Below are positions 1,043-53,185 of a DNA stretch of 64,000 nucleotides, one piece after another; the first letter of the stretch is position 1; each line of letters opens with the position of its first letter. The notes under the pieces are model-generated. The model worked only from the letters and a program-made list of their open reading frames with translations, ran no database searches and had not been told where the DNA came from. The stretch spans positions 1,796-65,795 of the forward strand of contig DASWKB010000008.1 of NCBI GenBank assembly GCA_036396895.1, written 5' to 3'. Made by a program: the position numbers and the translations under genes. This stretch comes from a bacterium (GTDB lineage: Bacteria > Omnitrophota > Gorgyraeia > Aquiviventales > Aquiviventaceae).

Positions 1043-1148
1043 AGCACTCCGCTATGTTTTATTGAGAGCCGTTATGCCGCTTTCACAACCTTTGGCGCAT
1101 ACAAGTATGCCCGATGAGCCCGCTGAAAGCAACGTGCGCCAGCATTTC

Positions 1149-1480
1149 GGGGCGGGGGGCGGGGGGGCGTGGTGAGGGGCGGAAACATGTACCGCGTACG
1201 ATGGCGTTCATTGGTCTGAAGCTGGAAGCCAGACGCTGGAAGCTGGAACGTCCAATCCAGAGTTTCGTCTATACCGTCTTTTCCGTCAATCCGTCTATTC
1301 CGTCGGGACACCTCGGCTTGTTGACGGACAGACGGAAATGACAGGACTGACGGAATGGACGAGCCGGCGTTCCAGCCTCTAGCTTCCTGCTTCGAGCTTC
1401 AGACCTGTTCGGCGGGATGTCCCTTGTTGCCTATCGATTGTGGCTGCGTGGACGGTGGACGGTGGTCTGTGGACCGTGGA
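1149..1480. repeat. Composite intergenic mosaic element, copy 1. Order: G-tract, GCTGGAA-word hairpin enclosing a CCGTC-word hairpin, then a GTGGAC heptamer array.
   Basis: G-tract at 1149-1182. Outer arms 1213-1250 and 1368-1405 are about 80% complementary. Inner arms are 1267-1304 and 1323-1360. The array gtggacg gtggacg gtggtct gtggacc gtggact lies at 1448-1480. Homologous to 6877-7150. Confidence 0.85.
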
Positions 1481-1487
1481 CTCGAAA

Positions 1488-5064: not shown

Positions 5065-6353
5065 CCGGTCACCCAACCCGGCGGCTGCACGTTGTGCAGC
5101 CGGAACTTGGACAGGACCCGCGGGCGCGCGCCCGTATAGCGGTGCGTTCCGTGCATCTCTCCGTCGGCCGAATAGTCTCCTGTCTCGAACACGAAAAGTT
5201 CTTCCAATTCGAATCCCTCCTGCGAGACGCCGTGCACCTGCGTGATGGTCTCCACGCGGCGGCTGCCGTCGACAAACCGCCCCACGTGAACCACGAGGTC
5301 CACGGCGCTGGCGATCTGCATCCGGCACGCCGCCGGCGGCAAGTCCAGTCCGCTCATGAGCATCATGGTCTCCAGGCGCTCGAGCGCCGCGCGGGCGCTG
5401 TTGGCGTGGAGCACCGTGATGAAGCCGTCATGTCCCGTGTGCATCGCCTGGACGACGTCCAGCGCTTCCCCGCCCCGGGCCTCCCCGAGGATGATCCGGT
5501 CGGGTCGCATCCGGAGCGCGTTTTTCACGAGCGCGCGCAGCGGCACGTTGCCCCGGCTGTCGGCGTTGCCTTCCCGGGCCACCATGCGGATCCAGTGCTC
5601 CCGCCCTGGCAGCTCCAGCTCCGGCACGTTCTCGATGGTGATGATCCGGTTGTCCTTCGGCATGAACGTCGAGAGGATGGTCACCAGGGTGGTCTTGCCG
5701 GTGGAGGTCCCGCCGGAAATGATGATGTTCACGCGCGCCCGGACGCACGATTGGAGGAACTCCGCCGCCTGCGCGCTGAGCACGCCGAGCTGGACGAACT
5801 CCTCCATCGTCCAGTCGCGGACCTTCTTGCGGATGGTCACGACCGGACCGTTGAGCACGATGGGGGGGATGGCCACGTTGATGCGGGAGCCGTCGGGCAG
5901 CGTCGCGTCGCACAAGGGATCCGCCTCGTTCACGCCGCGCCCGATCGGGGCCAGCATCCGCTCGATCACGTGCAGGAGGTGCTGGGTGTCCCGGAACGAC
6001 GCGTCGATCCGCTCCATCCGCCCATCCCGCTCGACGTAGATGTCCTTGGGGCCGTTGACCATAATTTCGCTCAGGGTGGGATCGGCGAGGAGCGGATCGA
6101 GGGGGCCCAGGCCGACCACCTCGTCCATGACTTCGCGGATGAGCTGGTCTGTCGCATCGCCGGCGAGATCGATGCGCTGGCGGAGATCGTCGGGCAGGCC
6201 TTGCAGCTCGCGCCGGAGGACCTCCTCCGCGGCCTGGCGCTGCGCCCCGGGCCGCCCCGGATCGAGCTCCTCGTTCGCCTCGACGAAGTCGGCCAGGCGC
6301 ATCTTCAGCCTGGTCTTCACGCGGTCGTACGGATTCTCGATGTCTCGATTCAT
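5061..6353 (-). CDS. cpaF: CpaF/TadA-type (VirB11-like) pilus assembly ATPase
   Basis: Start at MNRDIENPYDRVKTRLKMRL (ATG at 6353). Walker A GGTSTGKTT, Asp/His boxes (IILGEARGGEALDVVQAMHTGHDG) and VNGPKDIYVERDG are present. Confidence 0.9.
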   Translation of the reverse strand: MNRDIENPYDRVKTRLKMRLADFVEANEELDPGRPGAQRQAAEEVLRRELQGLPDDLRQRIDLAGDATDQLIREVMDEVVGLGPLDPLLADPTLSEIMVNGPKDIYVERDGRMERIDASFRDTQHLLHVIERMLAPIGRGVNEADPLCDATLPDGSRINVAIPPIVLNGPVVTIRKKVRDWTMEEFVQLGVLSAQAAEFLQSCVRARVNIIISGGTSTGKTTLVTILSTFMPKDNRIITIENVPELELPGREHWIRMVAREGNADSRGNVPLRALVKNALRMRPDRIILGEARGGEALDVVQAMHTGHDGFITVLHANSARAALERLETMMLMSGLDLPPAACRMQIASAVDLVVHVGRFVDGSRRVETITQVHGVSQEGFELEELFVFETGDYSADGEMHGTHRYTGARPRVLSKFRLHNVQPPGWVTG

Positions 6354-6455
6354 AGGCGCGGAGAGCTCAGGCGCGCGGTCGCGACCGGCTCGCATACCAG
6401 TATAGCATGGACGCGCGCGGCACCCAGCGCGTTTCCTCGTTCCAGATAATGAAAC

Positions 6456-6485
6456 GAGCAAAGGCACCATGCGGTGCCTTTGCTC
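6456..6485 (-). terminator. Perfect 13-bp stem / 4-nt loop hairpin downstream of tRNA-Glu; candidate intrinsic terminator
   Basis: gagcaaaggcacc-atgc-ggtgcctttgctc. On the minus strand it is followed by GTTTCATTATCT, which is only moderately T-rich. Confidence 0.4.
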
Positions 6486-6622
6486 CTGGTCCAACGGCAT
6501 GGGAACGAGGACGGGATACGTGTGCACTGCGCGCTCTCCGATCGGCCTGGGGTACGCTCACCCGTCTCCCCTTATATGCGCTCCGGAACTTCGCGTCGCA
6601 TGGTTTCAGCGCCGAGCAACCC

Positions 6623-6697
6623 TAGCCCCAACCGGATTTGAACCGGTGTCTTCAGGCTGAGAACCTGACGTCCTAGGCCGGGCTAGACGATGGGGCC
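6623..6697 (-). tRNA. tRNA-Glu (anticodon CTC); no encoded CCA
   Basis: Reverse complement: GGCCCCATCGTCTAGCCCGGCCTAGGACGTCAGGTTCTCAGCCTGAAGACACCGGTTCAAATCCGGTTGGGGCTA. Acceptor GGCCCCA pairs with TGGGGCT. Anticodon stem TCAGG/CCTGA with loop TTCTCAG. T-arm ACCGG-TTCAAAT-CCGGT. Confidence 0.85.
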
Positions 6698-6786
6698 CAA
6701 TCCGGTGCCTTGCGCGCTGCTGACCCGCCCGTGCTGACTGGCGCATCCGTCGCCGGCTCGCCCCGTCCGTGCCATTGCGCAGACAT

Positions 6787-6815
6787 TTTGTAGCATATGC
6801 GTCTTGTAAGGTCAA
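6787..6815 (-). promoter_or_regulatory. Candidate sigma70-type promoter upstream of tRNA-Glu
   Basis: Minus strand reads TTGACC - 17 nt - TACAAA, about 90 nt upstream of the tRNA 5-prime end. Confidence 0.3.
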
Positions 6816-6836
6816 GCGCTTTCGGGGGTTATCGTG

Positions 6837-7150
6837 ACGACCAACAACAAGCAACCAGAGACCAGCAACCAGAGACGGGGGGAGAGGGGCGAGAGGCGGG
6901 GGGCGGGGGACATAATCGTGTACCGTCGTACTACGGCGTTCACTGGTCTGAAGCTGGAAGCAAGACGCTGGAAACTGGAATGATCAGGGGGACCTCCCCG
7001 CTTGTTCCATCCTCTAGCTTCCAGCTTCGAGCTTCAGACTTGTTTGGCAGGATGTCCCTTGTTGCTTGTCGCTTGTTGCTTGTCGCTTGTTGCTTGTCGC
7101 TTGTCGCTTGTTGCTGCGTGGACGGTGGACTGTGGACTATGGACTGCGGA
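6837..7150. repeat. Composite intergenic mosaic element, copy 2. CAACCAG-word and CTTGTYG-word outer arms enclose a G-tract and a GCTGGAA-word hairpin, followed by a GTGGAC array.
   Basis: 6837-6876 (acgaccaacaacaagcaaccagagaccagcaaccagagac) is complementary in word content to the 7-nt array at 7054-7115 (cttgttg cttgtcg ...). G-tract at 6877-6909. Hairpin arms at 6945-6982 and 7007-7040. It lies immediately 3-prime of pilT. Confidence 0.85.
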
Positions 7151-7156
7151 GTCCGG

Positions 7157-8293
7157 TTACTTGCTCGGAGGCTGGTCCTTGCCGATGAGCATGTGGAACT
7201 CGGCGGGGCTCTTGACCCGGCTCATCGCGGTCTCGTACGAGATGACCTTGCGCTCGAACAGCTGCTTGATGCTGGCGTCCATCGTGCACATGCCGTACTG
7301 GGCGCCGGTCTGCAGGGCGGTCATGATCTGCTCGGTCGCGTGATCGCGGACGATGTTGCGCACCGCGGACGTCCCGATCATGATTTCATAGGCTAGCACC
7401 CGGCCCGGCCGGTCGGACCGCGGCAGGAGCTGCTGCGACACGACGCCCTGGAGGCAGTCCGCGAGCTGGATCTGGATCTGCGACTGCTGGTTCGGCGGGA
7501 ACACGTCGATGACGCGGTCAACCGTCTGGGCGGCGTCGGGCGTGTGCAGCGTCGCCATCACGAGGTGTCCGGTCTCGGCGGCCGTGATGGCCGTGGCGAT
7601 GGTCTCCAGGTCCCGCATTTCCCCGATGGCGATGACGTCGGGGTCCTGCCGGAGCGCGCGCACGAGCGCGGTGGAGAACGATTTCGTGTCAGCGTACACC
7701 TCGCGCTGCTTGATGATGGAGCGGCGGTTCTGGTGGATGAACTCGATCGGATCTTCGATGATCACGATCACCCTCCGCCGCTCCTGGTTGATGAGGTTCA
7801 CCATCGCGGCCATGGTCGTCGACTTGCCGACGCCGGTCGGGCCCGTGATGAGCAAAAGCCCGTTCGGCTTGCGCGTGAGCTCGGCGATCACCGGCGGCAG
7901 CCCCAGCTCCGCGATGGTCGGGATCCGAGACGGGATCAGCCGAAACGCCGCTTCGACGCTGCCCCGCTGGAAATGGACGTTGACCCGGAACCGTCCCAGT
8001 TCGTGCACGTGCACCGAAATGTCGAGCTCCAGATCCCGCTCGAACTGCGCCTTCTGGCGGTCCGTCAGAAAGCTGTAGACCAGCCGCTTCGTGTCCTCGC
8101 GCGTCAGCGGCGCAAGCTCCGTGGGCGACAATTCGCCGTCGATCCGCAGCATGGGCGGGCTGCTCTCGGTCAGGTGGATATCCGAGGCGCGCCGGGCGAA
8201 CGCGAGCTGAAACAGCTCGCGCATGTGCCCGATGGCCATGCCCGGCACGATCGGCGTCTCCGGCGCCGGCGGGGGGGATTCAACCTCTGGCAT
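7157..8293 (-). CDS. pilT: Type IV pilus retraction ATPase PilT
   Basis: 378 aa with ASDIHL, Walker A GPTGVGKSTT, DPIEF, GEMRDLETI and ATLHT motifs. The start could instead be the internal Met at 8239. Confidence 0.9.
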   Translation of the reverse strand: MPEVESPPPAPETPIVPGMAIGHMRELFQLAFARRASDIHLTESSPPMLRIDGELSPTELAPLTREDTKRLVYSFLTDRQKAQFERDLELDISVHVHELGRFRVNVHFQRGSVEAAFRLIPSRIPTIAELGLPPVIAELTRKPNGLLLITGPTGVGKSTTMAAMVNLINQERRRVIVIIEDPIEFIHQNRRSIIKQREVYADTKSFSTALVRALRQDPDVIAIGEMRDLETIATAITAAETGHLVMATLHTPDAAQTVDRVIDVFPPNQQSQIQIQLADCLQGVVSQQLLPRSDRPGRVLAYEIMIGTSAVRNIVRDHATEQIMTALQTGAQYGMCTMDASIKQLFERKVISYETAMSRVKSPAEFHMLIGKDQPPSK

Positions 8294-9374
8294 CGCGTCC
8301 CGATCGGATCTCCTGCAGCGCCAGCTGGAGCTCTTCCGGGCTGTCGGCGAACCGCATCGCCTCCTCGACGGCGATCTCTCCGCGCTTGCAGCGCTGGTAC
8401 AGGGCCTGCGTGAACGTCTGCATCCCGTCCATCGCGCCGTCCTGGATCGCCAACGGCACCGCCCCGGTGTCGCCCGTGCGCACGAGCTCGCGCACCCGCG
8501 GAGTCGCCGCGAGCAGTTCGCAGACGGGCAGCCGTCCCCCGCCGTCGCGCCTCGGCACCAGGCGCAGCGACACGATGCCCCGGAGCACGACGGCGAGCCG
8601 GATCCGGATGAGCCCGTGCTGATGCGGAGGAAAGAAGCCGATGACGCGCTCGATCGTCGTCACGACGTTCGTCGTGTGCAGGCACGTGAGCACGAGCTGG
8701 CCGGATTCCGCGGCGAACAGCGCGGATTCCATCGTCTCCAGATCCCGGACGTCGCTCAGGAACAGGACATCCGGGCTCTGCCTGAGGACGTGCTTCAGCC
8801 CCTCGGTGAACGTCAGCGTGTCGGTGCCGACTTCCCGCTGGTTGATCACCGCCTGGATTTCCTCGAACTGGAACTCGACCGGATCCTCGAGCGTCACGAT
8901 GTGCACCGGATGAGCGTGATTGAGCGTGTTGAGCATGGCGGCGACGGTGGTGGATTTTCCCGACCCGGTCGCGCCCGTCACGAGGATCAGCCCCTGGCGC
9001 GCCTCCAGGAGCGTGCGCAGCGGCTCGGCGGGCAGGTGCAGCTCCTCCAGCGTTGCGAGGGCCCGGGGCACGCGGCGGATCACCATCGCCATCGTCCCCC
9101 GCTGCCACAGGACGTTGGCGCGGAACCGCCCCGACGGAGGGCGCTCGAACGCGAAATTGATCTCGCGCGACTGCTCAAACTGCCGCCGGCGCGCCTTGCC
9201 CATGAGTTCCGACGCCGCGCGCGCGATGGCCTCCTCGTCCGCGCGGGTCTCGCCGATGGGCACCAGCTTGCCGTTCACGCGCATGAACGGATGCGCCCCG
9301 GCCTTGAGGATTAGGTCGCTGCCTTCATGCTCGACCATCACGGTGAGCAGCTGCTCGAGTTCGATCGCGCTCAT
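8280..9374 (-). CDS. Second PilT/PilU-family ATPase
   Basis: Start at MSAIELEQLLTVMVEHEGSDLILKAG (ATG at 9374). Walker A GATGSGKSTT, then EDPVEF, LSDVRDLETM and TCLHT. Confidence 0.85.
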   Translation of the reverse strand: MSAIELEQLLTVMVEHEGSDLILKAGAHPFMRVNGKLVPIGETRADEEAIARAASELMGKARRRQFEQSREINFAFERPPSGRFRANVLWQRGTMAMVIRRVPRALATLEELHLPAEPLRTLLEARQGLILVTGATGSGKSTTVAAMLNTLNHAHPVHIVTLEDPVEFQFEEIQAVINQREVGTDTLTFTEGLKHVLRQSPDVLFLSDVRDLETMESALFAAESGQLVLTCLHTTNVVTTIERVIGFFPPHQHGLIRIRLAVVLRGIVSLRLVPRRDGGGRLPVCELLAATPRVRELVRTGDTGAVPLAIQDGAMDGMQTFTQALYQRCKRGEIAVEEAMRFADSPEELQLALQEIRSGRDARG

Positions 9375-9440
9375 GGCATCTCCCGCGCCGCCAGCGACGC
9401 GTCCGGCGATGCGCCGTCTATGCAACAACGCGTAAGTTTA

Positions 9441-9470
9441 AGTATATCTGAGCGCGGGAGCTAAACTCAA
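9441..9470 (-). promoter_or_regulatory. Candidate promoter for the pilT pair
   Basis: Minus strand reads TTGAGT - 18 nt - TATACT, about 65 nt upstream of the ATG at 9374. Confidence 0.35.
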
Positions 9471-9492
9471 GCCGTCGGCTTCTCCGCCAAGT

Positions 9493-9594
9493 GATGAACG
9501 GATGACATGGATGTGACTGGATGACACGGATTCAAACGATTACACGGAATGGCAGGCCGCCAATCCGTGTAATCCGTCGAACATCCGTGAAATC
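9493..9594. repeat. ACGGATT-word hairpin module
   Basis: The 5-prime arm ...gatgacacggattcaaacgattacacggaatgg pairs with the 3-prime arm aatccgtgtaatccgtcgaacatccgtg. The same word family occurs at 18448-18550 and 48843-48880. Confidence 0.75.
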
Positions 9595-9607
9595 AGATGG
9601 AGTTGAT

Positions 9608-10054
9608 CTACGATGAAGGCTCAAGCGAAGGCTCCTGCTCCGGAGCCTCTTCGACCTCGAAGAGCGTGCGCGCCTGCGTATCGAGGACGTGCCGTTTCTC
9701 CAAATCCAGTCCGTACGTGCTGCTCAGCTGCTCGTTGAGCTCCGCGAGCCTCGCCTGCTCCTCGGACCAGTACGCGCGCAGCACCGCCATGCGCGCCATC
9801 GTGCCCTGGCGCTGCTGCCAGATGGAGGCGAACCCCTGAATTTCCTCGTCGTTCTCGAACTGGTGGACGACGTTCCGCTCGCCCGGGACGGCTTCGGAAC
9901 CCCCCGGGGCTGCCGGCGCGGATTCTTCTGCGGCCGGCTGGCTTTGCGCCGTGTCCTTGCGGCCCCAGCTCCATCCGAGCACGATCCCAACGGCCAGACA
10001 CCCTACGACGATCCAGAGCGCGGTGCGCCCCGCCACGTCACGTCCGGTGTTCAT
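9608..10054 (-). CDS. Hypothetical single-pass membrane protein
   Basis: Start at MNTGRDVAGRTALWIVVGCLAVGIVLGW, preceded by GGAAGGAG 8 nt upstream. It has an acidic C-terminus. I recognise no family. Confidence 0.5.
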   Translation of the reverse strand: MNTGRDVAGRTALWIVVGCLAVGIVLGWSWGRKDTAQSQPAAEESAPAAPGGSEAVPGERNVVHQFENDEEIQGFASIWQQRQGTMARMAVLRAYWSEEQARLAELNEQLSSTYGLDLEKRHVLDTQARTLFEVEEAPEQEPSLEPSS

Positions 10055-10161
10055 TCCGTGAGCTCCTTCCGCTATTCCAGTCTCCATCAACGCGTGCCTT
10101 GCTTAAGGAGCGTAGCGCGCCTTCCCGTTCGCGTCAAGCCCGCAGCAATGAAGGACCAGGA

Positions 10162-10290
10162 CGGGGCATGGGGCGTGCCAAGTGCGGAGTGTGGAATCTG
10201 TGCAAAATGCGGAATTGGGAATTCGGAATTTGGAATGTCAAACCGCAGGTGATTCCGCATTCCGCATTCCACATTCCGCATTTGGCACGG
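10162..10290. repeat. GGAATTS / ATTCCGC heptamer-word hairpin module
   Basis: ...gcaaaatgcggaattgggaattcggaatttggaatg ... gattccgcattccgcattccacattccgcatttggcac. Related to 18885-18968 and 20252-20335. Confidence 0.8.
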
Positions 10291-10316
10291 AGACTGATCA
10301 TAAGGTGGACTCCTCA

Positions 10317-11294
10317 TCAAATCCGATCAAGAAGCGGCGCCGGACAGTACGCCGCCATGTCGGGCGGCGGAAGCGCGGTGACCGCCACCGGGGCGCCGGT
10401 TGAGGGGTGCCGGAACGTCAGACGGAACGCGTGCAGCTGCTGCCGCCCGATCCCGCGGCCCTGCCAGTCGGACGCGGAGCGCCGCCCATACGTCGTATCG
10501 CCCGCCACGGGATGCCCCACGTGCGCCAGATGCACGCGGATCTGATGCGTCCGCCCGGTCCCGAGGCGCAGGTGAAGCAGCGTGCACGGCAGCGTGTGAA
10601 TTGCCAGTCTCGCGAGCACGCGGAAATGCGTGACCGCGTGGCGGCCGCCGAGCATCCGGACCGACATGGTCTTCCGGTGCGTGGCGTGGCGGGCGATCCC
10701 CGCTTCGATCGTCCCGGCGTCGCGGGCCAGGTGCCCTTCCGCCAGCGCGAGATATTCCCGGCTGAGCGTGCGGGCCTTGAGCTGCTTGGCCAGCGCCAGA
10801 CGGGCCCGGGCGGTCTTGGCGACCAGCAGCAGCCCCGAGGTGTCTTTGTCGAGCCGGTGGACGATGCCGGCGCGCGGCAGCGGCTCCGGAGCGCTCTCGC
10901 GCGCCTGCTGCGCCTTGACGTAATAGCCGAGAATGGCGTTGACCAGCGTGCCGTCCCAGTGGCCGGGAGCGGGGTGCGTGACCATGCCGGCGGGCTTGTT
11001 CACGACCAGCACCGCCCCGTCCTCATGGACCACCTCCAGCGGCAGGTCCTGCGGGACCGACGGCATGCGTTCGGGCCGCGGAGGCAGCGCCGTAAACTCC
11101 GCGCGGATCCGTTCCCCGCCCCGCAGTTTCAGGTGGGCTTTGGCGGGACGCCCATCCACGGTCACCTGCTGGGCCCTGATGGCGCGCTGGACGACGGTCC
11201 TCGAGAGCACCTCCGGCAGATGCCGTCCGAGGTACTGATCGAGCCGGAGCCCCGCTTCCGCCCGGCCCGTCAGGAGCTCATAAACCCGCGCCAT
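10317..11294 (-). CDS. rluD: RluD-family 23S rRNA pseudouridine synthase
   Basis: 325 aa with an S4-like N-terminus (LRLDQYLGRHLPEVLSR) and the catalytic HRLDKDTSGLLLVAKT motif. Confidence 0.9.
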   Translation of the reverse strand: MARVYELLTGRAEAGLRLDQYLGRHLPEVLSRTVVQRAIRAQQVTVDGRPAKAHLKLRGGERIRAEFTALPPRPERMPSVPQDLPLEVVHEDGAVLVVNKPAGMVTHPAPGHWDGTLVNAILGYYVKAQQARESAPEPLPRAGIVHRLDKDTSGLLLVAKTARARLALAKQLKARTLSREYLALAEGHLARDAGTIEAGIARHATHRKTMSVRMLGGRHAVTHFRVLARLAIHTLPCTLLHLRLGTGRTHQIRVHLAHVGHPVAGDTTYGRRSASDWQGRGIGRQQLHAFRLTFRHPSTGAPVAVTALPPPDMAAYCPAPLLDRI

Positions 11295-12061
11295 CAGCCG
11301 CTGCGCGCGCGGCCGGACGGCGACGCCGTCCGGAGCACGAGGCCCGCCGCGATCAGCGCCGCGCTGATGCCCTGCTGGAGCGTGAGGCCGGCGAGCCAGA
11401 TACCCTGGTCGCCTCGGAGGAATTCCATGCCGAAGCGCAAGAGCCCGTACGCGATCAGATACGCGCTCCCCACCCGCCCCCGGCGGACCGGTTGCCCGTC
11501 ACGCTGGAGACGGCGCAACAGGACGTAGCAGCCCAGGAGCCCGGCCGCCTCGATGAGCTGCGTCGGCAGCACGGGAGCCGGATGCCCAGGAAACGTGACG
11601 CCGAACCACGCCTCCGTCGGACGCCCGTAGCAGCAGCCGTTCAGGAAGCAGCCGAGGCGGCCGATCGCATGCCCCAGCGCGACGAACGGGGCCAGCTGAT
11701 CGAACGCGGCGATCCAGGATCGCCCGCGCCGCATGAGCCAACCCCCGGCGGCCAACATGCCGCCCAGGAGACCGCCGTACCAGACAAGCCCGCCTTCCCA
11801 GATGGCGAAGATCCGCCACGGAGCGTCTCGAAACACCTCCCAATAGAGCGCCGCAAAGAACAGCCGGCCTCCCGCGATGCCGCCCAGTAGCGCGATTGAC
11901 ACCAGATCCAGCAGCGCCTCCGCAGGCACCTCGACGGACTCCCGCGGCCACGCGCGCGCGGTCCGCGCCGCCAGCCACGTCGACACGACGAAGGCCAGGA
12001 TCAGCATCACCCCGTACGTGTGGATCGTCACCGGCCCCATTCTCACCAGCACGGGAAACAT
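11294..12061 (-). CDS. lgt: Prolipoprotein diacylglyceryl transferase
   Basis: 255 aa. MFPVLVRMGPVTIHTYGVMLILAF..., GRLGCFLNGCCYGRPT and multiple TM helices. Confidence 0.9.
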   Translation of the reverse strand: MFPVLVRMGPVTIHTYGVMLILAFVVSTWLAARTARAWPRESVEVPAEALLDLVSIALLGGIAGGRLFFAALYWEVFRDAPWRIFAIWEGGLVWYGGLLGGMLAAGGWLMRRGRSWIAAFDQLAPFVALGHAIGRLGCFLNGCCYGRPTEAWFGVTFPGHPAPVLPTQLIEAAGLLGCYVLLRRLQRDGQPVRRGRVGSAYLIAYGLLRFGMEFLRGDQGIWLAGLTLQQGISAALIAAGLVLRTASPSGRARSG

Positions 12062-12074
12062 CGCTCGCTCCTCA

Positions 12075-12600
12075 TGTCAAATGCGGAATGCGGAATTCGG
12101 AATTGGCCTTGTCCGGCCACGAAACGTGACGCTGGTGCATTGATGCATCATGGCAGCGCCTTGATCGTTGTCGGTCGCCATTGCCGTCTCGTCCATGTGT
12201 TCCGTCTGTCCGTCATCATTGGGGCATGGGCCACGGGGCACGGGGCGTGGGCCGTGTCGTGCGATCGTTGAACTGGTAGAAGGTGGAAGATGGAAGGTGG
12301 AAATGTTCCCTTGTACTTTCTACCTTCCATCTTCTACCTTCTATCTTCTATATGATGTGACGGTCATCCCCACGCCGTGCCCCGGAGCGAACGAAGTGAG
12401 CGGAGTCCTGAGCGAAGTCGAAGGACCCGCCCCGTTCCCCATGCCCCCCGTGCTGACGGAACAAACGGGCAGAACGGGCATGAACTTGTCACTTGTCACC
12501 TGTCACTTGTCACGCGTTTCTCTGGTCGCTGGTCTCTGGTCGCTGGTCGCTGGTCTCTGGTTGCTGGTTGCTGGTCGCCGGTCGCTGGCCGCTTGTCTGC
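12075..12600. repeat. Largest mosaic element in the window. Three-tier nested inverted repeat plus a conserved GAGCGAA core. Its last module overlaps the lspA 3-prime end.
   Basis: Tier 1: 12275-12303 pairs with 12317-12350 (GGTRGAA / CTTCYAT heptamers; 26 of 29 complementary). Tier 2: 12221-12254 pairs with 12369-12384 plus 12427-12448 (GGGGCAC words). Tier 3 is weaker: 12183-12214 with 12455-12485. A cttgtca array lies at 12488-12512 and a CTGGTYG array at 12515-12590. Confidence 0.85.
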
Positions 12601-13068
12601 GCGAAAGGAATGCCACAGCAGCAGCGCGACCCCGATCGTGATGGCCGAGTCTGCGATGTTGAACACGGGCCAAACGCGCAGGTCGATGAAATCGACGACG
12701 TAGCCGAAGCGGACCCGGTCGATCAAGTTGCCCGCGGCGCCTCCCAGGAGCAATCCCGACGCGGCCAGGACGGCCATCGGCTGCCGGCGCCGGCTGAGCA
12801 GCATCCAAGCGATCCAGAGCATCACCGTCGCCGAGAGCGCGATGAAGATGCCCAGCTGGCCGCGCAGCAGGCCGAACGCGGCCCCGGTGTTCTGGACGTA
12901 GGTGAGATGCAGGACGGAGGGAATCACCGGGAGGCTGTCCCCCGGCGCGAACCGGCCGAGGATCAACAGCTTGACGAGTTGGTCCGCGACGAGCACCGCA
13001 GCCCCGACCGCCCACGGCCACGCCAGCCGCGGAACCGCCGGCGCGGGAGGGTCCTCCTGAGCGGTCAT
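12496..13068 (-). CDS. lspA: Lipoprotein signal peptidase II with a repeat-encoded low-complexity C-terminal tail
   Basis: 190 aa with LTYVQNTGAAFG, GGAAGNLIDR and FNIADSAITIG. The tail ADKRPATGDQQPATRDQRPATRDQRPEKRVTSDR is encoded by the heptamer array at 12496-12600. Confidence 0.9.
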   Translation of the reverse strand: MTAQEDPPAPAVPRLAWPWAVGAAVLVADQLVKLLILGRFAPGDSLPVIPSVLHLTYVQNTGAAFGLLRGQLGIFIALSATVMLWIAWMLLSRRRQPMAVLAASGLLLGGAAGNLIDRVRFGYVVDFIDLRVWPVFNIADSAITIGVALLLWHSFRADKRPATGDQQPATRDQRPATRDQRPEKRVTSDR

Positions 13069-13096
13069 CTCGGGCGCTCCGCGGGAGCCCGGACGG

Positions 13097-13480
13097 TCAG
13101 GGCTTGCCCTTCTGCTCCTTGACCCGCTGGCACTCGATGCACATGAGCGCGTACGGCACGGCCTTCAGCCGGCTCATGGTGATCGCCTTGCCGCACGCCT
13201 GGCACACCCCGTAGCTCCCGTCATCGATCCGCTTGAGCGCGTCATCGATCTGGTAGAGCAGTTCGCGTTCGTTGGAGGCGACGTTCATCGACAGTTCCCG
13301 CTCGTGCGTGTCGGTCGCCATGTCCGCCATGTGCACCGTGTAGCCCGACAGGTCGCCTGAGGCGTCCCGCGGGGTCTTCAGGGCGTCCTGGGCCAGCGAG
13401 CGCAGCTCGCCGACAATCCGCTCGCGCTCCGTAATGAGCAGTTGTTTGAAGTGCTTGAGCTGGTCCTTCGTAATCGCCAT
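13097..13480 (-). CDS. DksA/TraR-family C4 zinc-finger protein
   Basis: Start at MAITKDQLKHFKQLL (ATG at 13480). Zinc finger CQACGKAITMSRLKAVPYALMCIECQ. The 300-aa track ORF is an artefactual extension into ileS. Confidence 0.8.
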   Translation of the reverse strand: MAITKDQLKHFKQLLITERERIVGELRSLAQDALKTPRDASGDLSGYTVHMADMATDTHERELSMNVASNERELLYQIDDALKRIDDGSYGVCQACGKAITMSRLKAVPYALMCIECQRVKEQKGKP

Positions 13481-13494
13481 GAGTCCGTCGTTGG

Positions 13495-16332
13495 TTACTC
13501 GGTTGCGTGAGTGCCTGGCAGCGTCGGCATGCCCGCCACGGCCTGGACGCACCGCGCGCACAGCTGCGGATGGTCCGCATGCGCTCCGACGCTGTCCAGG
13601 TGCTTCCAGCACCGCCCGCACTTGGCGCCCGGCGCGCGGCTGATCCGGATGCCGGCCAATCCCGGCACGCCGGTCTCGTCCGCGTCCTGCGGCCCCGCGG
13701 CGGCCACGGCGACCTCCGACACCACGAACGCCTCCGCGAGCGTGTCGCGATGCGCGTGCAGGTCCCGCAGGAGCTCCGGGTCGCGCGCGCTGAGCGTCAC
13801 GCGGGCCTCCAGCGGGCTGCCGATCACCCGCTTGAGCCGTTCGGCTTCGAGCGCCTTCATCACGGCGCCGCGCACCGCGAAGAACGTGTCCCAGCGCGCG
13901 GCCGCCGCCGCATCCAGCGCCCCGCCCTCCGGAGCCGTCCAGGCGCCGAGCCCGGCGAAGGGTTCGCTCACCCACTGCGCCTCGCGCATGAACTGCCACA
14001 CCTCATCCGTCGTCACGACGAGGACGGGCGCCAGGGTCGCCACAAGCGCGCGCAGTATAGCATAGAGCGCGGTTTGCGCACAGCGCCGTTTCGCCGAGTC
14101 CGCAGGCTCCGTGTACAGGCGGTCCTTCAGGGCGTCCAGGTAGCACGACGAGAGGTCCTGTACGCAGAACCGGTAGACGGCCCGAATCGCGTCGTGAAAC
14201 TGGTACGCCTCGTAGGCGCGCGTCACGTCCTCGCACAGGGCAGCGGTCCGGTGGAGAGCCCACCGGTCCAGCTCGCCGAGCTGCCGCGCCGGCACCGCCG
14301 CGCGGGGATGAAAATCGAACAGGTTCGCCAGCAAATACCGGAACGTGTTGCGGATCTTCCGGTACGATTCGGCTGTCTGCTCGAGAATCTCGTCCGAAAT
14401 CCGCACGTCTTCGCGGTAATCCGACGAGGCGACCCACAGCCGCAGGATGTCGGCGCCGTAGCGTGCCGTCACCTCCTGCGGCGCGATGACATTGCCCAGG
14501 CTCTTGGACATCTTGCGCCCGTCTCCATCCACGACAAACCCGTGCGTGAGCACCTGACGGTACGGCGGCGCGCCCTTGAGCGCCGCGGCCGTGATCAGCG
14601 AGACTTGGAACCACCCCCGGTGCTGATCCGACCCTTCAAGATACAGATCCGCCGGCCAGCGCAGGCCCGGCCACGTCTCAGGCCGCAGCACCGCGGCATG
14701 GCTGACCCCGGAATCGAACCACACGTCCAGGATATCCGGATCCTTCCTGAGCTCCCTTCCGCCGCAGTCCGGGCACGCCAGCCCCGGCGCGAGCTGCGCG
14801 GGCGTCTCGGTGAACCAGGCCTCGAGGCCGCGCTCGGCGAGCGCGGCCTCGATCCGCTCGATGGCCGCGACGTCGAGCAGCGGGCGTTCGCAGGCGGCGC
14901 AGTGCAGCACCGGAATCGGGCTGCCCCAGTACCGCTGCCGGGACAGGCACCAGTCGGGACGGGACTGCAGCATGCCCGCGATGCGTCCGAGCCCCGCGTC
15001 CGGCACCCAGCGCACGCCGCGGACGGCCTCGAGCAGCATCGCGCGGAACGGGTCGGTCACGCGCAGAAACCACTGCGGCGTCGCGCGGAAAATGACCGGC
15101 TGTTTGCACCGCCAGCAGTGGGGATAGGAGTGCTCCAGGGGCTCCTCCCGTAGCAGGAGGCCCCGGGCCGTCAGATCCCGGATGATGTCGGGCGTCGCGT
15201 CCCATACCGTCCGGCCCGCCCACGCCGGCACCTCCTGCGTGAACCGCCCGCGCTCGTCCACCGGCGAGAGCACCTCGAGCCCCGCCGAGCGGCCGATGAG
15301 GAAGTCTTCATGCCCGTGTCCGGGCGCGATGTGGACCACGCCCGTGCCCTCGGTCAGCGAGACCCCGGCATCGAACACGGCGCGCGACCCGCGCGCCGCC
15401 AGCGGCGCCCGGCAGACCATGCCGTCCAGGGCGCGCCCGTCGAACTCGGCGACCCGCGCGGCGCCGGGCGCCCCGAGCTTGGCCAGGAACGCCTCGGCGA
15501 CGTCGGAGGCGACCACCAGCTGGCTCGTCCAGCGCGCGTCCGTGAACACCGCATACCGGGCGTCCGGATGGAAGCACAGCGCCACGTTCGCCGGCAGCGT
15601 CCAGGGCGTCGTCGTCCAGGCCACCACCGCCGTCGGGCGGCCGAACGCGTCCCGCGCGTCTGCCGGCAGTCCCGCCGGCGCGCGCTCGACCGGGAACGCC
15701 ACGTAGATCGACGCGTCGCGGCGGTCCTCGTACTCGACCTCCGCCTCCGCCAGCGCGGTTTCGCACGTCGCGCACCAGTACACCGGCTTCATGTCGCGCA
15801 CGATGTATCCCCTGCGCACGAGCTCCTTGAACGACCGGAGCACCGTCATCCCGTACTCGGCCGACATCGTGAGGTACGGGCGCGCCCAGTCCCCGACCAC
15901 GCCAAGCCGCTTGAACTGCTCCCGCTGGATGCCGACGTATCGCTCCGCGTACGCGCGCGCGAGGCCGCGGAACTCATGCTGGGCGATGTCGCGCTTGGTG
16001 AGCTTCCGCTCCTTGAAGAGCTGGTGCTCGATCGGCATCCCATGGCAGTCCCAGCCCGGCACATACGGCGCGTCGTAGCCCCGGAGCACCTTGTAGCGCA
16101 CGATGACGTCCTTGAGGATCTTATTCAGGGCGTGCCCGATATGGATATCCCCGTTGGCGTACGGCGGGCCGTCATGCAGCACGAACGTCTCGGCGCCGGC
16201 GCGCGCGCGGCGCATCAGTCCGTACAGGTCCTCGGAGTCCCATCGGGCCAGGAACGCCGGCTCGCGCTCCGGAAGATTGGCCTTCATCGGAAACGTCGTC
16301 TTCGGAAGATTCAACGTGGTTTTATAGTCCAT
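13495..16332 (-). CDS. ileS: Isoleucyl-tRNA synthetase
   Basis: 945 aa with the HIGH motif (PYANGDIHIGH), KMSKS, and a C-terminal zinc-binding CxxC pair. Confidence 0.95.
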   Translation of the reverse strand: MDYKTTLNLPKTTFPMKANLPEREPAFLARWDSEDLYGLMRRARAGAETFVLHDGPPYANGDIHIGHALNKILKDVIVRYKVLRGYDAPYVPGWDCHGMPIEHQLFKERKLTKRDIAQHEFRGLARAYAERYVGIQREQFKRLGVVGDWARPYLTMSAEYGMTVLRSFKELVRRGYIVRDMKPVYWCATCETALAEAEVEYEDRRDASIYVAFPVERAPAGLPADARDAFGRPTAVVAWTTTPWTLPANVALCFHPDARYAVFTDARWTSQLVVASDVAEAFLAKLGAPGAARVAEFDGRALDGMVCRAPLAARGSRAVFDAGVSLTEGTGVVHIAPGHGHEDFLIGRSAGLEVLSPVDERGRFTQEVPAWAGRTVWDATPDIIRDLTARGLLLREEPLEHSYPHCWRCKQPVIFRATPQWFLRVTDPFRAMLLEAVRGVRWVPDAGLGRIAGMLQSRPDWCLSRQRYWGSPIPVLHCAACERPLLDVAAIERIEAALAERGLEAWFTETPAQLAPGLACPDCGGRELRKDPDILDVWFDSGVSHAAVLRPETWPGLRWPADLYLEGSDQHRGWFQVSLITAAALKGAPPYRQVLTHGFVVDGDGRKMSKSLGNVIAPQEVTARYGADILRLWVASSDYREDVRISDEILEQTAESYRKIRNTFRYLLANLFDFHPRAAVPARQLGELDRWALHRTAALCEDVTRAYEAYQFHDAIRAVYRFCVQDLSSCYLDALKDRLYTEPADSAKRRCAQTALYAILRALVATLAPVLVVTTDEVWQFMREAQWVSEPFAGLGAWTAPEGGALDAAAAARWDTFFAVRGAVMKALEAERLKRVIGSPLEARVTLSARDPELLRDLHAHRDTLAEAFVVSEVAVAAAGPQDADETGVPGLAGIRISRAPGAKCGRCWKHLDSVGAHADHPQLCARCVQAVAGMPTLPGTHATE

Positions 16333-16450
16333 GACAATTATGCGGCTGAGACCGGCGAGCGATCATGCCGGCGCGGGAGAGCAGACGTGCATGTGTGCAT
16401 TCGTGCAGAGCTTCGATTGTTGATGCCACTGCATCCCCGAGAAGCCGAAA

Positions 16451-16545
16451 GTGGAAGCTGGATGTCGTCGTGGTGTATCGGCGTTGCCATGTTACTTGTT
16501 GCTTCTTGCTGGTTGCTTGTTGCTGGTCGCTAGCCCTTTGTCGCT
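16451..16545. repeat. Short mosaic element (GCTGGAW word plus a CTTGTTG/CTGGTTG array) just 3-prime of yggT
   Basis: gtggaagctggatg at 16451-16464. gttacttgttgcttcttgctggttgcttgttgctggtcgctag at 16491-16533. Confidence 0.7.
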
Positions 16546-16846
16546 AGCCAAGGCGATGCGACAGGTCGTAGAGGGACGCCACGAGGAACAGCCGGAGAAA
16601 CCAGATGCCCAGGAGCGCCGCCAGCGGCGAAAGATCCAGCATGCCCACGACCGTAAACGGCAGCGTGCGGCGGATCCAGGCGAACACCGGCTCGGTCACC
16701 GCCCGCAGGAATTGCACGACCGGGTTGTACGGATCCGGACTGACCCATGAAATCATCACCGAGACGAAGATGACGAAACTGTAGATCCACAGGACCCGGT
16801 CGATGATGACCGCAGTCGCCTGCAAGAGATTGCCGAGCACGAACAT
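16544..16846 (-). CDS. yggT: YggT-family membrane protein
   Basis: 100 aa reading ...ISWVSPDPYNPVVQFLRAVTEPVFAWIRR.., the typical YggT motif. Confidence 0.8.
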   Translation of the reverse strand: MFVLGNLLQATAVIIDRVLWIYSFVIFVSVMISWVSPDPYNPVVQFLRAVTEPVFAWIRRTLPFTVVGMLDLSPLAALLGIWFLRLFLVASLYDLSHRLG

Positions 16847-16879
16847 CGCGATCCCTCCGTTCGCCTGCTCCGCGCCACG

Positions 16880-17722
16880 CTACCGCGCGGCGCGCGACAA
16901 GGCCCGCGAGCGCGCCGCCGCCGCCCGCACGGCACCGACGATGGCGGCATGCGCGCGGCGGGCCGCCAGCACCTTGAGCGCCGCCTCGGTCGTGCCCCGT
17001 TTGGACGCGACGGTGGCGATCCACTCGTCAGGGTCCCGCCCGCCCCGTTCAAGCAGCGCCAGCGCGCCGCGCAGCGTCGCGGTAACCGCGCGGGCCGCGA
17101 GCGGCGCCGGCAGCCCGAGAGATACCGCCGCCTCCCTCCACGCGCGCACGAGGTACAACACGTACGCGGGCCCGGACCCGCTGACGGCCGTGACCGCGTC
17201 GAAGTGCGACTCCGGCAGCTCGACGACCTCGCCCACCGTGGCGAAGATCGCCGCCACCGCGCGCCGGTGGCGCGCGGTGCACCGACGGCCGAACGCGAGC
17301 GCGGCGAATCCGGCTCCCGCCGTCGCCGGCAAGTTCGGCATGACCCGCGCCACGGGCATGCCGGGCAGCCGGGATTCGAGCCACCCGAGCCGGATGCCCG
17401 CCGCGATCGAGATGACGAGCGTCCGGCGATCCATCGCGCCCGCGAGATCCCTCAGCGCGCCGGCAAGCTGCTGGGGCTTGACCGCCAGCACCAGCACCCG
17501 GCACTGGCGCGCCACCGCGCGGTTGTCCCGCGTGACGGATGCGCCCGAGCGCCTGAGCGCGCGGCGCGCCGCGGCCGAGGGATCCGCGACCCAGAGCCGG
17601 CCCGCCGGCATGCCCGCCGCCCGCAGGCCCACCGCCAGGGCGCGGCCCATGGTTCCGCCTCCGATCACGCCGACGCTCGTCGTCCTGAGCTGCGCCGGCA
17701 CGGACGCGCGAGGCGCCGTCAT
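16880..17722 (-). CDS. proC: Pyrroline-5-carboxylate reductase
   Basis: Start at MTAPRASVPAQLRTTSVGVIGGGTMGRAL (ATG at 17722; ATGA overlap with the yggS stop). Also contains LAVKPQQ and SGSGPAYV. The C-terminus reads KRGTTEAAL. Confidence 0.85.
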   Translation of the reverse strand: MTAPRASVPAQLRTTSVGVIGGGTMGRALAVGLRAAGMPAGRLWVADPSAAARRALRRSGASVTRDNRAVARQCRVLVLAVKPQQLAGALRDLAGAMDRRTLVISIAAGIRLGWLESRLPGMPVARVMPNLPATAGAGFAALAFGRRCTARHRRAVAAIFATVGEVVELPESHFDAVTAVSGSGPAYVLYLVRAWREAAVSLGLPAPLAARAVTATLRGALALLERGGRDPDEWIATVASKRGTTEAALKVLAARRAHAAIVGAVRAAAARSRALSRAAR

Positions 17723-18432
17723 GCTCCGAGCGCCGTCCGCGCGCCGAATATCGCCGTCCCGATCCTCACGATGTCCGCTCCCTCTTCCACGGCCACGTCG
17801 AAATCCTCGGACATCCCCATCGACAGCGCAAGCGACGTCGCCGGCCATCCGAGCCCGGCGGCGATCTCGTCGCGAAGCTCCCGCATCCGGCGAAAGACAG
17901 GACGCGCCGACTCGGGATCGTCCGACCAGGGCGCGATGGCCATCAACCCGGCCAGGCGAAGGTGCGCGGAACCCGCCGCCCGGCTGGCGAGCGGCTCCGC
18001 CAACTGAGGCGCGCAGCCGTGCTTCGCGGGCTCGCCCGCCACGTTCACTTGGATGAAGACGTCAAGCGTGCCCGCCTGAGGCGCGGCAGCGCGGTGCGCC
18101 TCGAGCGCGTCGATAAGCTCCCCGGAGTCCGCCGAGTGCACCGCATCGAACAGGACCGCCGCGAGCTTGGCTTTGTTGCGCTGCAGATGCCCGATCAGAT
18201 GCCAGCGGCCGCGCCGGCCTTCGCCCCGGCCGAGGAGCTCGAGCTTGCTCCTGGCCTCTTGGACCCGGCTTTCGCCGAACGCGTCCAGGCCCAGCGCCGC
18301 GGCCGCCCGGATCCGCTCAAGCGGCACGCCCTTCGTGACGGCCAGCAGGGTGACGGACGCCGGATCGCGGCCCGCCCGGCGGCAGGCTTCGCCGACGCGC
18401 CGGCGAACTTCGGCCACGTTGGACGCCAGCAT
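17719..18432 (-). CDS. yggS: YggS-family pyridoxal-phosphate homeostasis protein
   Basis: Start at MLASNVAEVRRRVGEACRRAGRDPASVTLLAVTKGVP. Also contains HLIGHLQRNK and MGMSEDF. Confidence 0.85.
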   Translation of the reverse strand: MLASNVAEVRRRVGEACRRAGRDPASVTLLAVTKGVPLERIRAAAALGLDAFGESRVQEARSKLELLGRGEGRRGRWHLIGHLQRNKAKLAAVLFDAVHSADSGELIDALEAHRAAAPQAGTLDVFIQVNVAGEPAKHGCAPQLAEPLASRAAGSAHLRLAGLMAIAPWSDDPESARPVFRRMRELRDEIAAGLGWPATSLALSMGMSEDFDVAVEEGADIVRIGTAIFGARTALGA

Positions 18433-18439
18433 GCGGAGT

Positions 18440-18445
18440 ATTTTA
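18440..18445 (-). promoter_or_regulatory. TAAAAT -10-like hexamer 7 nt upstream of the yggS ATG; possible leaderless transcript
   Basis: Minus strand reads gcTAAAATactccgcATG. Confidence 0.25.
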
Positions 18446-18447
18446 GC

Positions 18448-19008
18448 ATACGGATTACACGGATTCAGATTGGATTGCACGGATTCAAAGAGGATGACAC
18501 AGATTGACGATTCAATCCGTATAATCCGTTGTGAATCCGTATAATCCGGCAGTGAAAAACCCGGGACTGTCCCGGGTTTTAATTGGGGACTGTCCCGGGT
18601 TTCCCCGGGTTTTCCAGCTCAAACGCGGGGACAGCCCCGAGGACCACATTCGCGTACCGTGCACCGGAACGCAATTCGCAGTGTCGCGTAACGCGCAACG
18701 CGTAACGTGGGTCTCAAGCGTGATACATGCGGGCCAGTTCCCGAGGTGCCATCCCGCCGGAAGCGGGGTGGCTCCGAGGGGGCTGGGCCGCTCGAAATGA
18801 GGTCAAAGCTGGTCGGAAGCTGGAAGCTGAACGTCGAAGGGGCATGGGGCGCGGGGCGAGGGGCGGGGGAACTGGGGAGCTATGGCAAAATTCGGAATTC
18901 AGAATTGGGAATTCGGAATCGGACGCTCGTCATTCCGCATTTCGAACTCCGCATTCCGAATTTGGCACAGTTGCTGGTCCCTTGTTGCTGGTAGCTTGTC
19001 GCTTGTTG
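18448..19008. repeat. Repeat-only spacer between ftsA and yggS. Order: ACGGATT hairpin, CCCGGGAC palindromes, ACGCGTW words, GCTGGAA words, G-tract, GGAATTC hairpin, CTTGTTG array.
   Basis: Modules at 18448-18550, 18555-18615, 18672-18710, 18808-18838, 18839-18878, 18885-18968 and 18968-19008. No credible ORF is present. Confidence 0.85.
18555..18615. terminator. Tandem A-tract / CCCGGGAC-N-GTCCCGGG / T-tract palindromes; candidate bidirectional intrinsic terminators downstream of ftsA
   Basis: gaaaaacccgggactgtcccgggtttt at 18555-18580, with a degenerate second copy at 18585-18615. The same element occurs at 62038-62103. Confidence 0.55.
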
Positions 19009-20180: not shown

Positions 20181-20418
20181 GTCAACATTGGGCATGGGAC
20201 ACGTTATGGTACGGAGCACGGGGCGAGGGGCGGGGTAACTGGGGAGCGATTGCAAAATTCGGAATTCGGAATTGGGAATTCGGAATCGGACGCTCGTCAT
20301 TCCGCATTCCGAACTCCGCATTCCGAATTTGGCACAGTTGCTGGTCTCTGGTTGCTTGTCGCTTGTCGCTTGTTGCTTGTCGCTTGTTGCTCGTTGCTTG
20401 TCGCTCGTTGCTTGTTGC
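20181..20418. repeat. Mosaic element between ftsQ and ftsA (G-tract, GGAATTC hairpin, long CTTGTYG array)
   Basis: 20219-20346 matches 18852-18979 with 5 mismatches over 128 nt, in direct orientation. Confidence 0.9.
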
Positions 20419-39980: not shown

Positions 39981-40030
39981 CAACTCGTCTTCATCATAGC
40001 AAAGTTTCAGCGCCCGCGCGGCCCGATGTT

Positions 40031-40269: not shown

Positions 40270-40282
40270 GATCAAGCGTGCA

Positions 40283-53174: not shown

Positions 53175-53185
53175 CGAAGTACGCC

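Follow-up and report, generated by a model that had tools for sequence, protein, structure and literature searches.

The intergenic DNA of a bacterium of the phylum Omnitrophota consists in part of degenerate arrays of short words, mostly 7 nt long, that are set as imperfect and often nested inverted repeats. We analyzed a 64,000-nt stretch of its genome (assembly GCA_036396895.1, contig DASWKB010000008.1, positions 1,796 to 65,795 of the forward strand; hereafter the window), starting from the spacer that separates lspA (12496-13068) from lgt (11294-12061). The best reading of these elements is that they are heptanucleotide arrays similar to the short tandemly repeated repetitive sequences (STRR) of cyanobacteria and to long simple sequence repeats (LSSR), organized as mosaic palindromes similar to the repetitive extragenic palindromes (REP) and bacterial interspersed mosaic elements (BIME) of enterobacteria. 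As an explanation we favor, with a probability of roughly 0.55, a family of non-coding extragenic repeats with a probable effect at the RNA level.

Autocorrelation of all intergenic regions 50 nt or longer (n=18) revealed a match frequency of 0.372 at lag 7, compared with 0.258 in dinucleotide shuffles (z 20.7), with harmonics at lags 14 (z 15.4), 21 (z 9.5) and 28 (z 4.3). The sole autocorrelation signal of coding DNA was the codon period, at lag 3. Spacers make up 9% of the window (5709 nt), and 30 period-7 arrays cover 18% of this DNA. Shuffled spacers (n=200) contained a mean of 0.02 and a maximum of one period-7 array. No arrays were found in the spacers at periods 4-6, 8-10, 12, 13 or 15, and only one at period 11. 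The whole window contains 31 arrays, 29 of them intergenic by the gene map; the count of 30 includes the array in the lspA tail, with 12496-12610 classed as spacer. At least one array is present in every spacer of 250 nt or longer (11 of 11). A preliminary description, made from the sequence alone, had proposed that spacers are assembled from 7-nt words, and all the example arrays that it quoted were found in place, as was the predicted lag-7 signal. Its purely heptameric vocabulary was too narrow: Tandem Repeats Finder concurred with our arrays and assigned periods of 8-12 nt to several modules. About eight word families are present on the plus strand (CTTGTYG/CTGGTYG, GTGGACN, AATKCGG, GGGGCRY, GAAGRTR, GAAGCTG, CGCGTAA and ACTTGTC), most of which recur elsewhere in the window as reverse complements.

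An inverted partner within 400 nt, matching at 12 or more of 14 positions, was detected for 13 of the 31 arrays, compared with 6 of 31 for a control pattern. The proposal that arrays usually have an inverted partner is therefore borne out for about half of them. The arms are only about 70-93% complementary, and the palindromy is not strict as had been supposed. Nesting was recovered as predicted, with three tiers at 12179-12482 and two each at 1213-1405 and 6838-7116. Whole-spacer folding, likewise proposed earlier, was found for eight of the spacers of at least 130 nt, which fold better than shuffles (z −3.6 to −8.7). Three others (16288-16543, 39954-40282 and 57963-58465) carry arrays, fold no better than shuffles and contain half-elements only.

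Modules are shared between loci, in agreement with the preliminary description: 18846-19008 and 20213-20375 are 93% identical over 163 nt, and 12313-12447 and 40136-40269 are 90% identical over 135 nt. The homology boundaries between copies fall within arrays. The elements that follow a secretin gene and pilT2 are also homologous (Table 1). The former is ordered as a G-rich array, a GAAGCTG arm, an inner tier of 8-9-nt period (1263-1355), a TTCCAGC arm, a degenerate array A and a GTGGACN array. In the pilT2 copy array A is longer by 35 nt, a single indel of five whole units (5x7), and the inner tier of the secretin copy is missing; this additional inner palindrome represents a symmetric gain or loss on both arms around the loop. 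In six cases of six, CRACAAG-type array A directly adjoins the upstream gene's stop codon or is no more than about 45 nt away, always in one orientation.

Folding of 12165-12500, between lspA and lgt, gives the three-tier hairpin as the structure of lowest free energy on each strand (−154.5 and −168.9 kcal/mol; z −7.0 and −8.7). The tiers of this hairpin were recovered from the outside inwards as inverted repeats I2, I4/I5/I6 and I1, with complementarity of 71-93% (Table 1). On the lspA side the arrays enter the gene. LspA is about 25 residues longer than in relatives, and the extra PATRDQR repeats are a translated CRACCAG array (12496-12600, minus strand); the stop codon of the extended frame falls in the adjacent array H. 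The LspA tail of L208, a high-GC relative (GQGAGGGGHG), is also encoded by an array, a G-rich one.

The side branch of the hairpin, module X, is present in three copies in the window (12373, 40195 and 58308). The other two are 90-93% identical to the copy at 12373 and 84% identical to each other; the parts with a 12-nt period lie at 12385-12428, 40207-40250 and 58320-58363. A 20-nt string of this module, CCTGAGCGAAGTCGAAGGAC, is identical in a distant metagenome-assembled genome (MAG), L019 (16150-16177), where it forms a small hairpin, and a related hairpin was found in L083 (8893-8930). We take module X to resemble both the stable d(GCGAAGC) mini-hairpin and small palindromic sequences that occur widely in soil MAGs. 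The literature searched for module X contained nothing on it, and a search with the peptide string LSEAKDL gave no match that would identify it.

The comparison of orthologous spacers that had been suggested earlier was carried out. Gene order is kept in relatives whose IleRS is 64-68% identical. The lspA-lgt gap is 434 nt in the window compared with 6-10 nt in L081, L084 and L085. With respect to L084, the ftsQ-ftsA gap is 302 nt compared with 14 nt, the ftsA-yggS gap 576 nt compared with 47 nt, and the yggT-ileS gap 256 nt compared with 18 nt. Since the same gene pairs lie 6-50 nt apart in several relatives and 250-760 nt apart here, the spacers of the window are lineage-specific insertions in conserved operons.

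Relatives carry heptamer arrays inside genes as well. In five of them arrays, some as inverted pairs, are in frame within an rluD-like gene and occupy two shared variable loops (alignment columns about 133-155 and 250-276); no such arrays are present in the rluD-like genes of the window and L084. A near-identical in-frame array (ccttgaa ccttgaa cctcgaa ccttga) is present near the YggS C-terminus in L083 (525-555) and L206 (8464-8494), despite IleRS identity of only 66% between the two, and their yggS-proC spacers have CAAAATC-type words in common. The lgt gene is directly preceded by heptamer hairpins in the window, L005, L008 and L208, with lspA confirmed ahead of it in the window and L208 only. 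The L208 lspA-lgt hairpin (GGGGGCR / CGTGCCC) matches tier 2 of the window element in words and polarity, and the lspA stop codon lies in its loop.

The preference for period 7 extends beyond this genome. The 29 Omnitrophota-labelled loci examined (432 kb, 37-56% GC) contain 36 period-7 arrays and at most five at any other period from 4 to 12 nt. The high-GC relatives L206, L207 and L208 contain 12, 10 and 4, with at most two, none and at most one, respectively, at any other period. No such preference was seen in 42 loci of other phyla (590 kb), with 8 arrays at period 7 and 4-11 at other periods. The preference is thus a trait of the phylum, across Omnitrophota of about 37-70% GC, and not of this genome alone; array density in the window is about six times that of the Omnitrophota-labelled set. 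Near-perfect inverted partners lie nearby for 18 of 65 arrays in the loci, compared with 3 of 65 for the control pattern. Eight inverted array pairs from other Omnitrophota loci fold with z −3 to −6.9; seven are intergenic and one, in L207, lies inside rluD. Array-pair stems are typically 6-bp helices separated by one mismatch per unit. In AT-rich relatives the hairpin spans the entire intercistronic gap, from 1-12 nt past the stop codon to 12-24 nt ahead of the next start.

The words themselves are not shared. Across all loci, 16 words were common to different genomes compared with 18 ± 3 in letter-shuffled controls, and for the high-GC relatives 14 of 39 words were shared compared with 17 in controls, so that a common vocabulary was rejected. 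What is conserved across genomes is the period and not the sequence. Matches of L159 (A, H and C' words), L207 (F words) and L208 (D words) to the window are anecdotal. A metagenome scan for CTTGTYG x3 found at least 120 heterogeneous contigs, mostly with only that array in common; two of them, L159 and L140, were taken further. In L140, a 410-kb metagenome contig of 56% GC, the gaps of a tRNA cluster (5180-6150) are filled by 10 of the 12 heptamer arrays of the locus, and the duplicated unit consists of a CAAGCGA/CAAGCCA array followed, after about 12 nt, by a tRNA. The literature searched contained no paper tying Omnitrophota to heptamer or tandem repeats and nothing published on their non-coding DNA.

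Comparison with known systems supports the likeness to STRR and BIME noted in the preliminary description. Cyanobacterial STRR are tandem 7-bp units at many intergenic sites, with hairpin-capable tracts that include one between the co-transcribed hupS and hupL, and roles in transcript stability or translational coupling have been proposed (PMC2670836). The window resembles them in having hairpin-capable tandem 7-bp units at many intergenic loci (30 arrays, 11 spacers). It differs in its host, a member of the Omnitrophota (PVC group) of 69% GC where STRR hosts are filamentous or heterocystous cyanobacteria, and in having many word families, nesting two to three tiers deep, shuffled modules and degenerate arrays with 14- and 21-nt periods. 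The words STRR1 (CCCCAGT), STRR2 (TTGGTCA) and STRR3 (CAACAGT) are not found in tandem on either strand of the window.

The earlier statement that a combination of heptamers and palindromy is unfamiliar was overstated. In most prokaryotic genomes that are rich in repeats, heptanucleotides have been reported as the commonest class of long repeats (Mrazek 2007, as summarized in PMC4679880); according to that summary LSSR of this unit are non-coding, sporadic in phylogenetic spread and attributed to polymerase slippage in 7-nt steps. As in LSSR, period 7 dominates among units of 5-11 nt and the tracts exceed what composition predicts (30 compared with 0.02 expected). Unlike the long, pure LSSR of that account, the window arrays are short and degenerate, about half are inversely paired, and they are organized in dispersed modules. 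Beggiatoaceae have TAACTGA repeats and Geobacter metallireducens has heptanucleotide elements; both are short intergenic direct repeats of heptamers, near start codons or at tens to more than 100 sites, for which functions have been conjectured (PMC4679880; PMC2700814). Unlike the elements described here, those systems use one fixed word per element family and have no nested palindromes; their words are absent as arrays from the window.

REP and BIME of enterobacteria are extragenic imperfect palindromes in operons and at 3' gene ends, dispersed in hundreds of copies and gathered in mosaic clusters of alternating orientation, with RNA-level effects on the stability of upstream mRNA. The window elements are likewise imperfect, mosaic extragenic palindromes within or after operons. 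They differ in having no REP consensus, in arms that are 7-nt arrays of at least eight words and not a fixed 35-40-nt unit, in reaching 300-700 nt, and in the lack of a RAYT gene among the scanned window proteins. Rickettsia palindromic elements (RPE) are fixed palindromic repeats of about 100-150 nt that are tolerated in frame inside genes. The in-frame arrays that relatives have in loops of RluD and YggS, and the LspA tail of the window, recall them; unlike RPE, these are arrays of 7-nt words and not fixed elements, and those of the window are almost all intergenic. Heptanucleotide arrays, hairpins made of them, mosaic extragenic palindromes and palindromic elements in genes are thus already known. 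The phylum, the multi-word vocabulary, the nesting in two to three tiers, the phylum-wide and GC-independent period 7 and the expansion in a division and cell-wall gene cluster are new.

The anatomy of the elements, their statistics, their status as insertions, a length difference between copies that is a multiple of 7 nt and the phylum-wide preference are direct observations; from them we infer a slippage mechanism, a mode of spread and a possible RNA-level function. Arrays would be made and resized in 7-nt steps by replication slippage or unequal exchange. Arms would originate from inverted duplication, new palindromes being added within or around older ones, and whole modules may be copied between spacers via recombination or a transposition-like process. 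Elements would be kept where little harm results, at gene boundaries and in surface loops. Many arm mismatches fall at one fixed position of the unit (hairpins of L001, L206, L207 and L003; 10200-10288 and 18888-18963 in the window), and therefore each arm has been homogenized independently.

Transcripts of the elements would fold into long stem-loops in which there is roughly one mismatch to every 7 bp. The terminator scan was limited to 1-20000, where no array hairpin carries a U-tract and the sole convincing intrinsic terminator lies after tRNA-Glu at 6485-6456 (minus strand). A canonical intrinsic-terminator role, one of those suggested earlier, is therefore unsupported. The likeliest effect would be punctuation of polycistronic mRNA through 3'-end protection, processing sites or a partial block to read-through, as proposed for REP and STRR hairpins. 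Placement between stop and start, uniform orientation, a reused junction and σ70-like hexamers would plausibly suit hairpins that stabilize or delimit transcripts. A search of known RNA families, also suggested earlier, matched none of the elements: only two tRNAs reach the Rfam gathering threshold in the whole window, and 12000-12700 gave only generic hairpin matches to eukaryotic miRNA precursors, far under threshold. Comparison with a plasmid database likewise yielded no relevant match.

Several observations weigh against the favored explanation. Mismatches in well-defined arms comprise 11 G.T, 8 A.C and 33 others, mostly pyrimidine-pyrimidine or purine-purine, and give no support to selection on an RNA fold of either strand. 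(A plus-strand G.U excess in whole-spacer folds, 93 compared with 36, was considered as a sign of RNA-level selection and rejected; it reflects the G+T-rich composition.) No target-site duplication is evident at 18841/19010 or 20208/20377, and no transposase or RAYT (IS200/IS605-like) was found among 50 of the 59 mapped window proteins scanned against Pfam, the other nine lying inside the division and cell-wall (dcw) cluster. No indels separate the members of two pairs of duplicate assemblies, L081/L082 and L084/L085, whose sequences are either the same or differ by substitutions only. The CAAAATC words shared by L083 and L206 hint at conservation, and thus at function, beyond neutral repeat turnover, as does the hairpin of L208 at the lspA-lgt junction (IleRS 65% identical). 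Finally, slippage leaves unexplained both the 7-nt step and the fixed orientation of array A beside stop codons.

The strongest competing possibility, to which we assign about half the weight of the favored one, is that the elements are selected RNA-level regulators, namely factor-dependent terminators or insulators, RNase processing sites or 3'-end stabilizers, with heptamers being the way in which this lineage builds stems. The location of hairpins exactly between stop and next start in many Omnitrophota, their recurrence upstream of lgt in four genomes, the orientation of array A (6/6), promoter-like hexamers at downstream spacer ends and the C- and A-rich sense strand of the spacers, reverse to the coding skew, all fit this proposal. 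It is set back by the syntenic relatives, which manage with 6-50-nt gaps, by the same arrays being found within coding regions, by arm mismatches that are mostly not wobble-compatible on either strand, by the three half-element spacers that have no fold, and by the lack of U-tracts.

A more speculative and rather improbable reading would be a conserved, phylum-wide mechanism, either a dedicated factor or a peculiarity of replication or repair, that writes and maintains palindromic 7-nt-period arrays where cistrons meet and in protein loops that tolerate them. Hairpins formed in this way (about 6 bp plus one mismatch, regularly spaced) would act as lineage-specific transcript punctuation, the multi-tier spacers of the window being an overgrown form.

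Slightly less probable still is that the elements are non-autonomous mobile elements (MITE/REPIN/BIME-like) moved by a transposase encoded elsewhere, for example of the RAYT/IS200 type, with heptamers secondary. Near-identical modules of 135-163 nt at unrelated loci and the palindromic architecture would be expected of such elements; the nesting resembles insertion of one palindrome in the loop of another, uniform orientation fits strand-specific transposition of single-stranded DNA, and the in-frame gene insertions resemble RPE. Apart from the missing transposase and target-site duplications, this view is countered by undefined ends, homology boundaries inside arrays and a mosaic module order in place of a fixed unit, and the phylum-wide period with genome-specific words fits a process better than one element family.

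We consider it improbable that the arrays are DNA-level sites for proteins that polymerize on contiguous 7-bp subsites and serve nucleoid organization or transcriptional control. Such binding would follow the precedent of the omega repressor, a ribbon-helix-helix protein, on heptad arrays in pSM19035. Contiguous 7-bp units in direct and inverted order, adjacent promoter-like sequences and a period conserved throughout the phylum are in line with it. At least eight unrelated word families in one genome and other words in other genomes, shared no more than by chance, make a single sequence-specific binding protein unlikely; in addition, arrays also occupy coding loops, the window has no copy of the omega heptad AATCACA, single or tandem, and no candidate binding protein was found. 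Misassembly or chimerism in a short-read MAG is conceivable as the origin of the spacers, with a single contig on record for this organism and low-complexity repeats that can confuse assemblers. It is very improbable given degenerate arrays of at most 120 nt, copies that differ by 7-20% between loci and have unique flanks, spacers bounded by intact genes whose order is conserved, and the same architecture in dozens of independent assemblies, among them JGI/ENA contigs and a single-cell genome, L003.

The Omnitrophota have compact genomes and no cultured members; many are ultra-small, and they appear to depend on hosts. Because period 7 is phylum-wide, array hairpins are intercistronic and one lineage has expanded them into nested structures of 0.3-0.7 kb, the elements offer a concrete handle on the old question of why 7 nt is the favored prokaryotic repeat unit. 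The nested structures lie inside a division and cell-wall gene cluster; should the elements have a function, they would punctuate operons in a manner peculiar to this lineage. Arrays extend reading frames, as in the LspA tail, and insert in proteins such as RluD and YggS, and will therefore mislead gene callers, and possibly assemblers, working on Omnitrophota MAGs.

Table 1. Coordinates of the repeat elements and their parts (window positions unless a relative is named; I1-I7, inverted repeats).
Feature	Position	Partner, strand or parts	Context or support
Array C, AATGCGG/AATTCGG, 3.4 units	12080-12104	minus strand CCGAATT/CCGCATT	directly upstream of lgt ribosome-binding site and ATG (12061)
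Tier 1 (outer) left arm, CCGTCT-type units, 8-9-nt period	12179-12214	partner 12455-12485	I2, I7 and folds
Tier 2 left arm, GGGGCAY heptamer array	12220-12256	partners 12368-12384 and 12429-12447	I4-I6 and folds
Tier 3 (inner) left arm, GAAGGTG/GAAGATG heptamer array	12275-12303		I1, 27 nt, 93% complementary
Tier 3 right arm, CTTCCAT/CTTCTAC heptamer array	12317-12351		I1
Tier 2 right arm, part one, CCCCACGCCGTGCCCCG	12368-12384		I6
Module X, side branch, 12-nt period, TGAGCGAAGTCC	12385-12428		
Tier 2 right arm, part two, GCCCCGTTCCCCATGCCCC	12429-12447		I4, I5
Tier 1 right arm, GACGGAACAAACGGGCAGAACGGGCATG	12455-12485		I2
Array H, ACTTGTC x4.3	12484-12513	gene strand GTGACAA	gives TGA stop (12496-12498) of extended lspA frame
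Array A, CTGGTYG x11	12522-12597	gene strand CRACCAG	translated as LspA tail of about 25 residues
Element after secretin stop (1488)	1149-1483		homologous to 6879-7153
Element after pilT2 stop (7157)	6838-7150	outer tier CRACCAG (6838-6876) with CTTGTYG (7058-7115); inner tier 6946-7039; GTGGACT array 7118-7145	
Palindrome of 9-10-nt units, GATGACACG / AATCCGTGA	9493-9594		not heptameric
Hairpin, AATKSGG and ATTCCGC arrays	10200-10288		between rluD and next gene
Array A, CTTGTTG-type	16490-16531	no partner arm	directly after yggT stop (16544); spacer unstructured
Palindrome, ACGGATTAC / AATCCGTAT units, 9-10-nt period	18450-18548		
Module: GGGGCGN array, AATTCGG/CATTCCG hairpin, array A	18838-19010		adjoins ftsA stop (19009)
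Second copy of ftsA-end module, longer array A (11 units)	20208-20418		after ftsQ stop (20451)
Half-element, right half of the 12165-12500 hairpin	40040-40271	no tier-3 left arm	unstructured overall
GCAACGC / CGTTACG arrays	45173-45251		beside tRNA-Pro
GAAGCTG array, then GAAGGTA / CTTCYAT hairpin	53245-53497		arms pair in several registers, 7-nt offsets
Mosaic	58096-58402	CRACCAG array (58096-58125), TTCCAGC array (58224-58255), CACGGTW array, module X (58308-58376)	not palindromic overall
In-frame rluD arrays, L207	14732-14809, 15090-15161		
In-frame rluD arrays, L206	15007-15038, 15312-15378		
In-frame rluD array, L083	7968-8037		
In-frame rluD array, L208	14925-14953		
In-frame rluD array, L081	14189-14219		

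The window, part of a contig of 92.4 kb, is 64-75% GC along its length, and the MAG is 69% GC. The nearest other IleRS among 5.8 billion proteins is 68% identical, and all named relatives are Candidatus Omnitrophica/Omnitrophota; when genomes were scanned with Lgt, the top match was 54% identical and no close relative came up. The gene map was based on open reading frames and codon-position GC, used in place of a windowed test of GC3 periodicity that was too noisy to delimit coding regions, and contains 59 genes, nearly all on the minus strand. They are housekeeping genes: mraZ and mur genes to ftsQ and ftsA are followed by yggS, proC, yggT and ileS, then by a dksA-like gene, lspA, lgt and rluD. 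Further genes include two for pilT-like ATPases, a tight-adherence-type pilus set with secretin, riboflavin genes, nusB, smc and ligA. The gene (minus) strand of the spacers is rich in C and A, for example at 1140-1487, 6830-7156 and 18830-19008 (one spacer has G 86, C 120, A 80 and U 62), the reverse of the G-rich skew of coding sequence there.

At downstream spacer ends, σ70-like hexamers lie next to start codons on the minus strand (53185-53215, 6398-6412, 9441-9470 and 18440-18452). TTGACC-17-TATACT is located 11 nt ahead of the ribBA ATG, TATACT 3 nt ahead of the T2SSE ATG and TAAAAT 7 nt ahead of the yggS ATG. Such closeness suggests either that leaders are short or absent or that start codons are misassigned in the gene map.

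ARAGORN reported a 95-nt 'tRNA-???' with a two-base anticodon at 49121-49215, within the ribD coding region; it has no Rfam support and is probably a false positive. Tandem perfect GC-rich palindromes between A and T runs (AAAACCCGGGACAGTCCCGGGTTTTT) are present at 18556-18605, a copy that the terminator consensus scan did not list, and at 62040-62104, outside the scanned range. They resemble intrinsic terminators that work in both directions, and have no relation to the heptamer arrays. The secretins encoded at 1488-3164 and 58466-60307 both have a C-terminal TonB_C domain, and this fusion is kept in relatives, including L083 and L084.

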